This document shows, one piece after another, positions 25,835 through 27,925 of a DNA stretch of 39,096 nt (position 1 is the first letter of the stretch; each line of letters starts with the position of its first letter). The position numbers were made by a program, and so were the translations under genes. The notes under the pieces are model-generated. The model did not search any database, was not told the origin of the DNA, and saw nothing but the letters and a program-made list of their open reading frames with translations. This stretch comes from a virus (taxonomy: Duplodnaviria > Heunggongvirae > Uroviricota > Caudoviricetes), in IMG/VR virus record IMGVR_UViG_2851971941_000002; one strand, 5' to 3'.

Positions 25835-26524
25835 TTAATCCAGTTTTGCAATATCTTGCTGTGAAAATATGGTCTTTTGTTTTGAACGTGTTTTCGTTAA
25901 AAGCAATAAAGCTTGGCTATCAAGCTGTAGAAAAATGTGCTTCATTGCAACCCAGCGTTCAGTAAATGTCTCAGACCAGTTTTTTGATGTCACTCCCACC
26001 AGTGATGCCAGCTCCTGGTATTCATAGGTCTTACGCCCTGCCAGCTCGTTCTTCACATCCTGTGCCGCCAGCCAGATCAACTTCTTCAAACGTTCCAGTG
26101 TTTTACCTGCAATTTTCCTGGTACCCAACAGAGTCTTAAACTCGCTCCATGCCCACTGCGTTATGGTGACCTGATGTTCCCAGCGAACACTTTCGCTGTA
26201 ACTCCACAGCAACCACGCTTTCTGATGTTCTTCGAGAGACAGAACCGCGCGGCGCCATGACGAGGTTGAGAACTCAACCTGGCTGACCAGTGCAATGGAT
26301 GAACCTTTTGCGTACAACTGCTTACCGGAAATCGGCGGATTATCCAGCGTAATCATCCTGCCAGTTACCTCATCCAGAATGCGCGGCTTCTTTCGTTTGT
26401 ATGTACCAGTATCAAATTGTGCATGCTCCAGCCAGGCTTCAAGCTGTCCTTTCGTTGCTCCGCTCAAATCAGCGGTAGCCACAATGAGTTGCTCGCGGAC
26501 ATACTGTAAATATTGGGTATTCAT
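25835..26524 (-). CDS. Q: late-gene antiterminator Q-like protein (non-lambda Q family)
   Basis: 229 aa; sits between the nin-region genes and the lysis cassette, where Q always lies in lambdoid phages; not similar to lambda Q as recalled, resembles the longer Q-type proteins of E. coli cryptic prophages; assignment rests mainly on synteny. Confidence 0.7.
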   Translation of the reverse strand: MNTQYLQYVREQLIVATADLSGATKGQLEAWLEHAQFDTGTYKRKKPRILDEVTGRMITLDNPPISGKQLYAKGSSIALVSQVEFSTSSWRRAVLSLEEHQKAWLLWSYSESVRWEHQVTITQWAWSEFKTLLGTRKIAGKTLERLKKLIWLAAQDVKNELAGRKTYEYQELASLVGVTSKNWSETFTERWVAMKHIFLQLDSQALLLLTKTRSKQKTIFSQQDIAKLD

Positions 26525-26661
26525 GCGGCAGCTCCTTTCAGTGTTTTGGCGTAATTCTTCAGTATCCGGTAATCGGTCAAAACAGAACTAGGAAAACGAT
26601 ATAAGCGCAGGCGCACCCAGCGGCGGCGAAGACGTTCTGCCATATAAGACTCAAACATCAT
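26521..26661 (-). CDS. ylcG: YlcG-like small protein (46 aa)
   Basis: Not in the ORF track (under 60 aa). ATG at 26661 overlaps the rusA stop (ATGA) and its TGA overlaps the Q start (ATGA); frame [46 protein letters not shown] resembles DLP12 YlcG as recalled. Confidence 0.65.
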
Positions 26662-27020
26662 TCATCTCCCAGTTCAGTGATAGTCAGCTCCAGCTTCCCA
26701 CCTTTGGTAACGGGCATCTTCACAACGCGGTAATCAACGACCTGAGCATCATCCAGCCAGAAACCTGCTTTGGTGAGTGCGTCAAAAGCGGCCTTTTGCA
26801 GATTATCAAGGTCACGGCGACGGCGATCCGGCATGTGGCACTCAATGCTGATTTTCACAGGAATAGCCAGGCCGATATCCAGCATTGCGTTTTTAATGAT
26901 TCGGGCGACATTATCGCGGTATGCCTGCCCCTCTGCGCTGATATGCGTGCGTCCGCGATTATGGCGGTAATAGCGATTATTGCTCGGCGGCCAGGGTAGT
27001 GTGATGCAGTAAGTATTCAC
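26658..27020 (-). CDS. rusA: Holliday junction resolvase RusA
   Basis: 120 aa; [108 protein letters not shown] matches E. coli RusA as recalled. Confidence 0.95.
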
Positions 27021-27307
27021 GCCTTAATTACCCCCTCTTTCAGCCAGATAACCTGTGTTCTCGCCATACCTTCCAGCGCACATTCTTTTGCATATCCAGC
27101 GTCAACAAAATGCGTGCGACGGTCGATTTCGTCGTGGCAGGCAGAACATGCAATGGTGGCAATCAGGTCTGGCGGTTTGATACCGGTACCGCACAATCCA
27201 GCCAGCCGGATATGTGCCAGTACTGACGTTTCAGGATTGCCATTACATACGCCAGGGATTCTTACCTGGCATTCCCGACCACGCGCTGCTTTTCTCAAGT
27301 CAGCCAT
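27017..27307 (-). CDS. ybcO: YbcO-like protein (DUF1364, putative Zn-binding nuclease)
   Basis: From ATG at 27307: [64 protein letters not shown], 96 aa like K-12 YbcO as recalled; overlaps the ninE stop; the ORF-track start at 27346 lies inside ninE. Confidence 0.85.
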
Positions 27308-27470
27308 GATTCCTCCTTGCTGCCAGTCGCAACCATTTTTTATCAACCAGGCTGGCGGTATATCCGAGCAGTGTTGGTATTTCGGATGGTTTCAGCTCAG
27401 GCTTACGCTTACGACGATTTGGTACTCTGTAGATGTGTCCGTTCATGACACGAATAAGCGGTGTAGCCAT
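27300..27470 (-). CDS. ninE: NinE-like protein (56 aa)
   Basis: Not in the ORF track (under 60 aa). ATG at 27470 shares one base with the ybcN stop (TAATG); translation [56 protein letters not shown]; basic, NinE-like by position. Confidence 0.75.
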   Translation of the reverse strand: MATPLIRVMNGHIYRVPNRRKRKPELKPSEIPTLLGYTASLVDKKWLRLAARRNHG

Positions 27471-27925
27471 TACGCCTCCTGCTTGTCGCGCAGCAGTTGG
27501 AACTCGCAGCTCTGCGGAATAGTCAGGTGGCAGCCAATATTCACCGCCCAGGCTTCAACCTTACACAGGAAGACATACATCTCTCCGGTATCGAGATCGG
27601 AGGTATGGCGTAACGACTGGATAGTAGTGATTTCGCCGGTTACGACATCAACCAGGTCCTTGGTTTCATAACCGAGGTATGTGTGTTTGAGAGCATCTTT
27701 TACCCATGCTGCGGTAGCGAACGATTTCCCCCTGCTGATGAGGTATTCACTGATTTCGCTGTACCACATGTGGCTGAGTGCATTCTGGGAAAGACTGCGT
27801 TTCTCACGCCACGGTTTAAGCACCATGCGAAAGCATTTTCCGTTCTCCAGATAAGGCTGGATCTGCTGGCCGATAGCGATGAAGTTACCGCGATGCAGTT
27901 TGATGCCATCTTGTGGTAGGTTCAC
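27470..27925 (-). CDS. ybcN: YbcN-like protein (DUF1367, DNA base-flipping protein family)
   Basis: 151 aa; [62 protein letters not shown] matches DLP12 YbcN as recalled; first gene of the nin operon. Confidence 0.85.

Follow-up and report, generated by a model that had tools for sequence, protein, structure and literature searches.

What gene block precedes the late-gene antiterminator gene Q in the viral DNA of IMG/VR record IMGVR_UViG_2851971941_000002 (Caudoviricetes; 39,096 nucleotides (nt), the whole of which is called the window here), and are the two very small open reading frames (ORFs) within that block true genes? A first-pass annotation, made from the raw sequence without tools, named the block ybcN-ninE-ybcO-rusA-ylcG and equated its arrangement with that of DLP12, the cryptic prophage of Escherichia coli K-12. 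This was a correct recognition of a textbook prophage module. We regard it as practically certain that the region is a standard phage-82/DLP12-type ninR module of a lambdoid prophage. The block is already known, annotated and very common, and there is no evidence against its identification. Its two small members, ninE and ylcG, are genuine, already catalogued genes.

Re-translation places all five genes where they had first been reported, on the minus strand and with open frames. They are ybcN at 27470-27925 (GTG start, 151 amino acids (aa)), ninE at 27300-27470 (ATG, 56 aa), ybcO at 27017-27307 (ATG, 96 aa; the ORF lister offers an alternative TTG start and 109 aa), rusA at 26658-27020 (GTG, 120 aa) and ylcG at 26521-26661 (ATG, 46 aa). 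A GGAGG-like Shine-Dalgarno motif lies 5-10 nt 5' of each of the five starts. All four junctions overlap, as the first-pass annotation had it, but its list of joining motifs (TAATG and ATGA) is incomplete. TAATG joins ybcN to ninE (1-nt overlap) and ATGA joins rusA to ylcG (4 nt), with ATGGCTGA (8 nt) used at ninE/ybcO and GTGA (4 nt) at ybcO/rusA. The overlapping chain is also longer than the five genes described at first. At one end the 33-codon ORF ylcH (27922-28023, minus strand), directly upstream of ybcN, has a stop codon that overlaps the ybcN GTG start (GTGA). At the other end the ylcG stop overlaps the ATG of Q (ATGA), and Q itself (25835-26524, minus strand, 229 aa) is the final member. 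The genes from ylcH through ybcN, ninE, ybcO, rusA and ylcG to Q would form one minus-strand operon. Because the stop and start codons overlap, ribosomes finishing one ORF could restart on the next, a translational coupling suggested by the geometry of the junctions. In a complete phage such an operon would be expressed as part of the delayed-early transcription that enters it from the replication genes; YbcN would act as an Orf/NinB-type recombination mediator that binds single-stranded DNA and SSB, and Q would switch on the late genes.

Comparison with K-12 bears out this arrangement. DLP12 carries ylcH-ybcN-ninE-ybcO-rusA-ylcG (b4588-b4509) in the same order, with the same lengths (33/151/56/96/120/46 aa), the same overlaps (4/1/8/4/4 nt), and the same promoter and leader upstream. 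The window aligns with it from 28115 to 26520, a distance of 1596 nt, with 0 gaps and 93.8% identity. Protein identities range from 80 to 98%, with differences at 8/151 positions in YbcN (94% identity), 1/56 in NinE (55/56 residues shared), 2/96 in YbcO, 7/120 in RusA (94% identical to the characterised K-12 protein) and 9/46 in YlcG (37/46 residues shared). A megablast search with 26400-28100 (1701 nt, the five-gene block included) has matches to 3717 of the 5426 complete E. coli genomes. The block is far beyond chance, because its lengths and offsets match those of DLP12, the alignment is free of gaps, the matches extend to this many genomes, and its proteins fall into the curated families described below.

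Such likeness invites the thought that the window is the DLP12 prophage itself, the argU-linked element of K-12. The nin block is co-linear with DLP12 at 94% identity, the Bor, Rz and nohD-like segments match it at 93-98%, and the prophage in the window is likewise defective. Synteny nevertheless refutes this identity, to which we give next to no probability. The DLP12 locus matches only about 3.8 kb of the 39-kb window, which holds a full lambda-like set of head, tail and lysis genes. Homology with DLP12 stops at 26520, exactly at the ylcG stop and Q start. Beyond that point DLP12 has QuuD, a PF06530 protein of 127 aa encoded after an 85-nt gap, whereas the window has a PF06323 Q protein of 229 aa whose gene abuts ylcG. 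The flanks differ as well. DLP12 has emrE-ybcK-ybcL-ybcM upstream and nmpC downstream, and the window has an alpha/beta hydrolase gene and an inverse autotransporter gene upstream and a holin gene downstream. With Q replaced exactly at the ylcG stop codon, the locus offers a clean case of modules being exchanged at the boundary of a gene. The site of this swap, at 26520/26521, is the stop/start overlap ATGA between ylcG and Q.

The ninR module of the window is found nearly unchanged in Escherichia phage PhiR47_2 (PV340567.1), where the whole block including Q is 99.9% identical and is annotated with the same genes. Over 18.5 kb of late, lysis and nin genes the two are 98.5% identical, and the same hydrolase gene lies upstream. 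PhiR47_2 differs in being deposited as a complete 47-kb genome (host E. coli C) with cI, cro, cII, O and P, and in carrying emrE/ybcK cargo in place of the inverse autotransporter; in the window, all that should lie upstream of O has given way to insertion sequence (IS) elements. The nin region of phage 82 (orf151-orf56-orf96-rus-...-Q82) is alike by an indirect comparison, through the match of YbcO to a structure described as '82 prophage-derived'. Phage 82 orf151 is 97% identical to DLP12 ybcN, and rusA homologs of both K-12 and phage 82 have been cited (PMC4118853). All five genes carry these names in the RefSeq annotation of near-identical E. coli prophages. NinE, YbcO, YlcG, YlcH and Q are 100% identical to proteins of strain A20, and NinE and YlcG of the window correspond at 100% identity to WP_000224914.1 and WP_000971096.1, respectively. 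The order ybcN-ninE-ybcO-rusA-...-Q also occurs in Huaxiibacter and Franconibacter genomes. Most of the 134 phage and prophage loci collected share it, which makes it the most frequent arrangement there; mosaics such as ybcN-ninE-Q occur beside it. In strain TUM13066 (hit H1), an extra 505 nt carries second ninE and DUF1364 (ybcO-family) annotations.

Family and structure searches agree with the gene names. YbcN scores 275.2 bits against NCBIfam NF007281 (cut-off 164) and matches PHROG 72, 'NinB/Orf', with an expectation value (E) of 2e-51. Its gene lies between the replication genes and Q and upstream of the junction resolvase, as expected for the YbcN subgroup of Orf/NinB proteins (PRK09741). 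Curtis et al. 2014 (PMC4118853) used PSI-BLAST and fold recognition to link YbcN to the Orf/NinB proteins, from which it has diverged, and showed that it binds both single-stranded DNA and SSB. By BLASTP, it is 23% identical to lambda NinB (E = 0.22). NinE attains 141.7 bits against NCBIfam NF007245 (cut-off 88), belongs also to PHROG 288, and shows 49% identity to lambda NinE over 35 aa (BLASTP, E = 1e-6). YbcO, a small Cys-rich putative nuclease, scores 143.8 bits against Pfam PF07102 (DUF1364; cut-off 29.9) and matches PDB 3G27, to which the depositors gave the name '82 prophage-derived ... ybcO', over residues 1-96 (E = 2.5e-62). RusA reaches 79.2 bits against Pfam PF05866 (cut-off 22.8) and 271.9 bits against NCBIfam NF007305 (cut-off 200, residues 1-120 covered), and aligns with the solved structures PDB 1Q8R and 2H8C at E of about 1e-76. 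In a residue-by-residue alignment to 1Q8R, Asp70, Asp72, Lys76 and Asp91 are unchanged, as is a WLDDAQ stretch; the catalytic residues are these three Asp residues plus Lys76. Judged by its sequence, RusA is a Holliday-junction resolvase with the catalytic Asp and Lys residues intact. YlcG matches NCBIfam NF033498 with 73.1 bits (cut-off 30) and PHROG 2705 with E = 3.7e-20, and Q matches Pfam PF06323 with 312.2 bits (cut-off 25) and PHROG 304. Both small proteins thus have homologs, curated NCBIfam and PHROG families among them, and their frames are unbroken, as the first-pass annotation had expected of real genes. NinE and YlcG are strongly basic (13 Arg+Lys against 3 Asp+Glu in 56 aa, and 11 against 3 in 46 aa, respectively), and their arginine-rich stretches recall arginine-rich RNA-binding peptides. 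This is an impression from sequence only, and a nucleic-acid-binding role for the two proteins would be a guess.

The ninE and ylcG genes had been missing from the ORF track that accompanied the first-pass annotation. They are real small genes that were hidden solely by its length cut-off, a floor of 60 aa. Their coding status is apparent from a substitution analysis in which unique full-length copies, taken from the 134 phage and prophage loci with homologs, were compared. The ninE ORF is intact in 98 of 99 copies, with 33/28/50 variable sites at the first, second and third codon positions and a ratio of nonsynonymous to synonymous polymorphism (pN/pS) of 0.31. For ylcG, all 44 of 44 copies are intact, with 16/18/29 variable sites and a pN/pS of 0.50. 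Corresponding values are 68/68 intact, 92/66/140 and 0.25 for ybcN; 68/69, 27/12/81 and 0.10 for ybcO; 57/57, 40/19/101 and 0.17 for rusA; and 39/40, 134/103/204 and 0.30 for Q. From pN/pS and the bias in codon position, ninE and ylcG therefore evolve as coding sequence, with ylcG under weaker constraint.

Several points qualify our reading of the region. YbcN scores 23.7 bits against Pfam NinB (PF05772; gathering score 23.8) and NinE scores 23.4 bits against PF05322 (cut-off 25). Because these values fall just under the cut-offs, the family membership of the two proteins rests on NCBIfam, PHROG and the literature. The constraint on ylcG is moderate only. As to expression, we infer both the translational coupling and transcription from the leader promoter described below. 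In K-12, rusA is reported to be poorly expressed unless an upstream IS insertion supplies a promoter (PMC4118853), and the operon may therefore be nearly silent here.

Some of these points would also suit a different view, in which ninE and ylcG are non-coding chance ORFs in the spacers between true genes. Both are very short, the NinE score lies under the Pfam cut-off, there is no Pfam model for YlcG, and the ylcG constraint is moderate. We consider this view very improbable. The curated NCBIfam matches of both proteins are far over their cut-offs and are joined by PHROG families, the ORFs stay intact with an excess of third-position variation and the pN/pS values given above, Shine-Dalgarno motifs and exact stop/start overlaps are kept for both genes, and NinE is homologous to lambda NinE. 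A rusA-ylcG transcript has been reported in K-12 (PMC12844172), and the same paper, on the regulator HusR, cites reports of ylcG induction in stationary phase. With ninE and ylcG accepted as genes, an ORF track with a 60-aa floor is seen to hide real, catalogued small genes, and the annotation of such regions should cover ninE, ylcG and ylcH. Boxes for HusR (YnfL) known from its K-12 rusA-ylcG target (PMC12844172) are present at 27253-27268 (minus strand, in ybcO) and 26902-26917 (plus strand, in rusA); one of them matches exactly, and the other differs by one letter at a position that the consensus leaves unspecified.

How different is this module from that of lambda? The first-pass annotation set it apart from lambda ninB-ninI, which is right as a gene list and overstated as a contrast: YbcN is a distant member of the NinB/Orf group and NinE is shared. 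The two nin regions occupy the same place between P/ren and Q, begin with an Orf-type gene, carry a junction resolvase gene later on, have overlapping reading frames, and have a terminator-like hairpin directly upstream of the first gene. The lambda region consists of ninB, C, D, E, F, G (rap), H and I. It differs in having ninC, D, F, H and I and in lacking ybcO and ylcG; RusA is found here in place of Rap/NinG. Lambda also has a bare terminator where the window has a promoter, two hairpins and a leader ORF.

The prophage that carries the module is defective. P is present (33611-34312), but gene O, compared with that of strain A20, lacks 1 nt near 34560, which shifts its frame, and its start is replaced by the end of an IS3-family element (region 34304-39096). 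Further along are an IS110 transposase gene (35566-36642), IS3 fragments (36966-37808) and a fragment encoding the N-terminal domain of a lambda-type integrase (37970-38509). The immunity region and the promoter pR are absent from the window. Cargo genes lie between P and the nin leader: a BD-FAE-type alpha/beta hydrolase gene (28373-29416, plus strand) and the gene for a 1302-aa inverse autotransporter with Big_1/invasin repeats (29453-33361, minus strand). As the immunity region and pR have been lost to IS elements, the nin-Q operon cannot be driven from pR here. The sole conserved promoter left before the operon is the predicted leader promoter at 28079-28107.

What, then, is the conserved DNA upstream of ybcN? 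A promoter scan predicts a sigma-70-like promoter at 28079-28107 on the minus strand, with a -35 hexamer TTGATT (28107-28102), a 17-nt spacer and a -10 hexamer CATAAT (28084-28079). Homology with K-12 and three other genera begins precisely at the -35 of this promoter. The -35 region (28090-28107) forms a perfect palindrome, TTGATTAT-GA-ATAATCAA, with half-sites that look like those of FNR (TTGAT/ATCAA) but are spaced by 8 nt and not 4; the palindrome was rejected as an FNR site on this ground. It was also rejected as a repeated operator, TTGATT-N6-AATCAA being a single occurrence in the window. In K-12, ylcH RNA is reported to be two-fold up in microaerobic growth (PMC8910356).

Three hairpins are predicted downstream of the promoter, all on the minus strand. 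Hairpin 1 (28048-28074), from the minimum free energy (MFE) fold, has a stem of 9 base pairs (bp; UCACCGGAG/CUCCGGUGA) and a conserved 9-nt loop, CCUGAACAA. It is predicted in 74 of 77 unique leaders, which use 43 different stems around a UGA(A/G)C loop core (loop consensus YYUGAACAM), and 8 of its 10 pairs show changes on both sides in a covariance-model alignment. The stem of hairpin 2 (28017-28043) is 10 bp long, has a single bulged U and is closed by a GGGA tetraloop; its 3' arm contains the ylcH start codon. At least 9 bp form in 76/77 leaders and the GGGA loop is present in 72/77; both-side changes affect 9/10 pairs, for example UAAACG/CGUUUA, UUUAAG/CUUAAA and UUUGAG/CUCAAA. A C-rich, G-poor spacer leads to hairpin 3 and its T7 run (27959-27987), which lie inside ylcH. 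The hairpin, CAG-A-UGCA-GAAA-UGCA-C-CUG, spans 27968-27987 and the T7 run 27959-27965, and a terminator scan reports a match at 27986-27963. The helix is kept by RNAalifold and by the covariance-model alignment, with both-side changes in 3/7 pairs. In the MFE fold of the window leader itself, the T-run pairs with AGAAA in an alternative hairpin. The run after hairpin 3 is U7 in the window and degenerate in K-12. Lambda has a plain hairpin and T-run at the same place upstream of ninB, known as tR2, and hairpin 3 with its T-run is predicted to be terminator-like and stands in the position of lambda tR2.

The fold of the window leader has a z score of -6.19 (MFE). Alignment with MAFFT followed by RNAalifold misaligned hairpins 1 and 2 and gave a partial structure only, and it was replaced by single-sequence folds and the covariance-model alignment (104 matches, 27 pairs counted). 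In this alignment, 97.2% of cells form standard pairs compared with 81.8% in the shuffled control, and 20/27 pairs are changed on both sides against a shuffled mean of 13.0/27. The covariation score is 0.374, compared with 0.111 for shuffled alignments and at most 0.052 for slid registers. The independent single-sequence folds are the safer support for hairpins 1 and 2, because the covariance-model alignment is fitted to the model; hairpin 3 offers fewer informative changes.

Hairpin 3 and the 3' arm of hairpin 2 fall within ylcH, which is annotated in K-12 as b4588 and treated by RefSeq as a small protein gene. Were ylcH to encode a functional small protein, the conservation nearby would be coding conservation plus an ordinary terminator. 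Of 94 unique versions, about 85 do keep the ORF open, with a length of 29-33 codons, its frame is preserved across indels that are multiples of 3, a core 12-residue motif recurs, and the stop overlaps the start of the next gene in every version. The substitutions point the other way. The pN/pS is 0.91 and variable sites are spread evenly over the three codon positions (17/17/16), the N- and C-terminal thirds differ completely between types, and in the conserved core, which coincides with hairpin 3 plus the U-run, even the wobble positions do not vary. Where CAG/CUG becomes CCG/CGG by compensatory changes, two ylcH codons are altered together, and the start codon sits inside the covarying 10-bp helix. 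No Pfam, NCBIfam or PHROG family matches the protein. A functional YlcH protein is in our judgment unlikely; ylcH looks like a translated regulatory leader ORF of the nin-Q operon.

The leader has comparative support, obtained as a side observation, and its regulatory role is what we infer from it. That the segment 27922-28107 (minus strand, ~190 nt) is a genuine cis-regulatory leader and at the same time a previously undescribed one, common to many lambdoid phages including DLP12, phi80, HK639 and PhiR47_2, is a tentative proposal, possible but on balance doubtful. The GNRA-capped hairpin 2 buries the start codon of the ~32-codon ORF and would limit ylcH initiation. Untranslated leader RNA would end at hairpin 3 and its U-run or be exposed to Rho, and translation of ylcH would carry ribosomes to the coupled first gene. 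In this way the leader would act as a gate on the entire nin-Q operon, for its transcription as well as its coupled translation, and could control entry into late gene expression, or the leakage of Q, RusA and Orf from cryptic prophages. Gating of this kind would fit the reported silence of K-12 rusA in the absence of an IS-supplied promoter (PMC4118853). It would also fit a microaerobic transcriptome table of regulated prophage genes, which lists ylcH RNA alone as two-fold up and has none of the five nin genes downstream of it (PMC8910356). If the proposal is true, a widely annotated 'small protein' would be mainly an RNA-level control element, the silence of K-12 rusA and its neighbours unless an IS element supplies a promoter could be explained, and there would be a regulatory step upstream of Q that is independent of the Q family and of the first nin gene.

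Among known systems, leader-peptide attenuators are similar: in them, a terminator-like hairpin lies within a short ORF whose end meets the start of the regulated gene; in the window, too, a hairpin and U-run lie inside a short ORF that ends at the gene in question. The leader differs from them in having no run of amino-acid codons, and no covarying alternative antiterminator pairing was found. An AUGCAG/CUGCAU pairing after the U-run was rejected as an antiterminator, as it shows no covariation and is reduced to 3-4 bp in variants. The putL site of HK022 is comparable in placing two stem-loops within a few nt of the promoter and before a terminator (PMC9378689). Local alignment against candidate HK022 put regions, guessed from self-comparison, gave no convincing similarity, and put serves as an analogy only. 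Hairpin 1 was considered as a nut/boxB-type site of all early operons and dismissed, there being no second copy anywhere in the window, or in PhiR47_2, where the surroundings of pL and pR were covered too. Prophage small RNAs of the AgvB/AsxR type were likewise dismissed; their families are in Rfam and give no match, and these RNAs lie downstream of pR' (PMC4104026; bioRxiv 10.64898/2026.05.13.724894). With Rfam 15, no match at gathering scores was obtained in the whole window, and 27850-28250 gave only chance-level hits (E above 5). A literature search by leader sequence strings found no paper, although an older description may exist in literature out of its reach.

The leader is widespread. 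It precedes the first nin gene in over 100 phage and prophage sequences. Viral contigs scanned for its pattern gave more than 120 stretches, and a second scan seeded on the leader core alone added 49 further unique versions. In each of these 49, a -10-like hexamer stands 5-8 nt ahead of hairpin 1, also where the promoter is of a second class. Phi80 and HK639 carry the element, and it was not found in the examined part of HK022. Directly after the leader there can be a gene for YbcN, for one of two canonical NinB subtypes, for a DUF968 protein or for Q. Several viral contigs (L078, L032, L094, L086, L033, L101 and L036) have two leader copies a few kb apart, and in L078 one of the two stands immediately before a PF03589-type Q gene. 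The leader of Franconibacter helveticus (L005, 958-1157) contains two or three tandem hairpins in place of one, each with a CCUGAACAA-type loop, and this repetition suggests that some factor binds to the loop. In some genomes, represented by E. coli S1-THA-01-A (L189) and by hit H14, an IS3-like ISEc52 inside ybcN cuts ninE-ybcO-rusA-ylcG-Q off from the leader.

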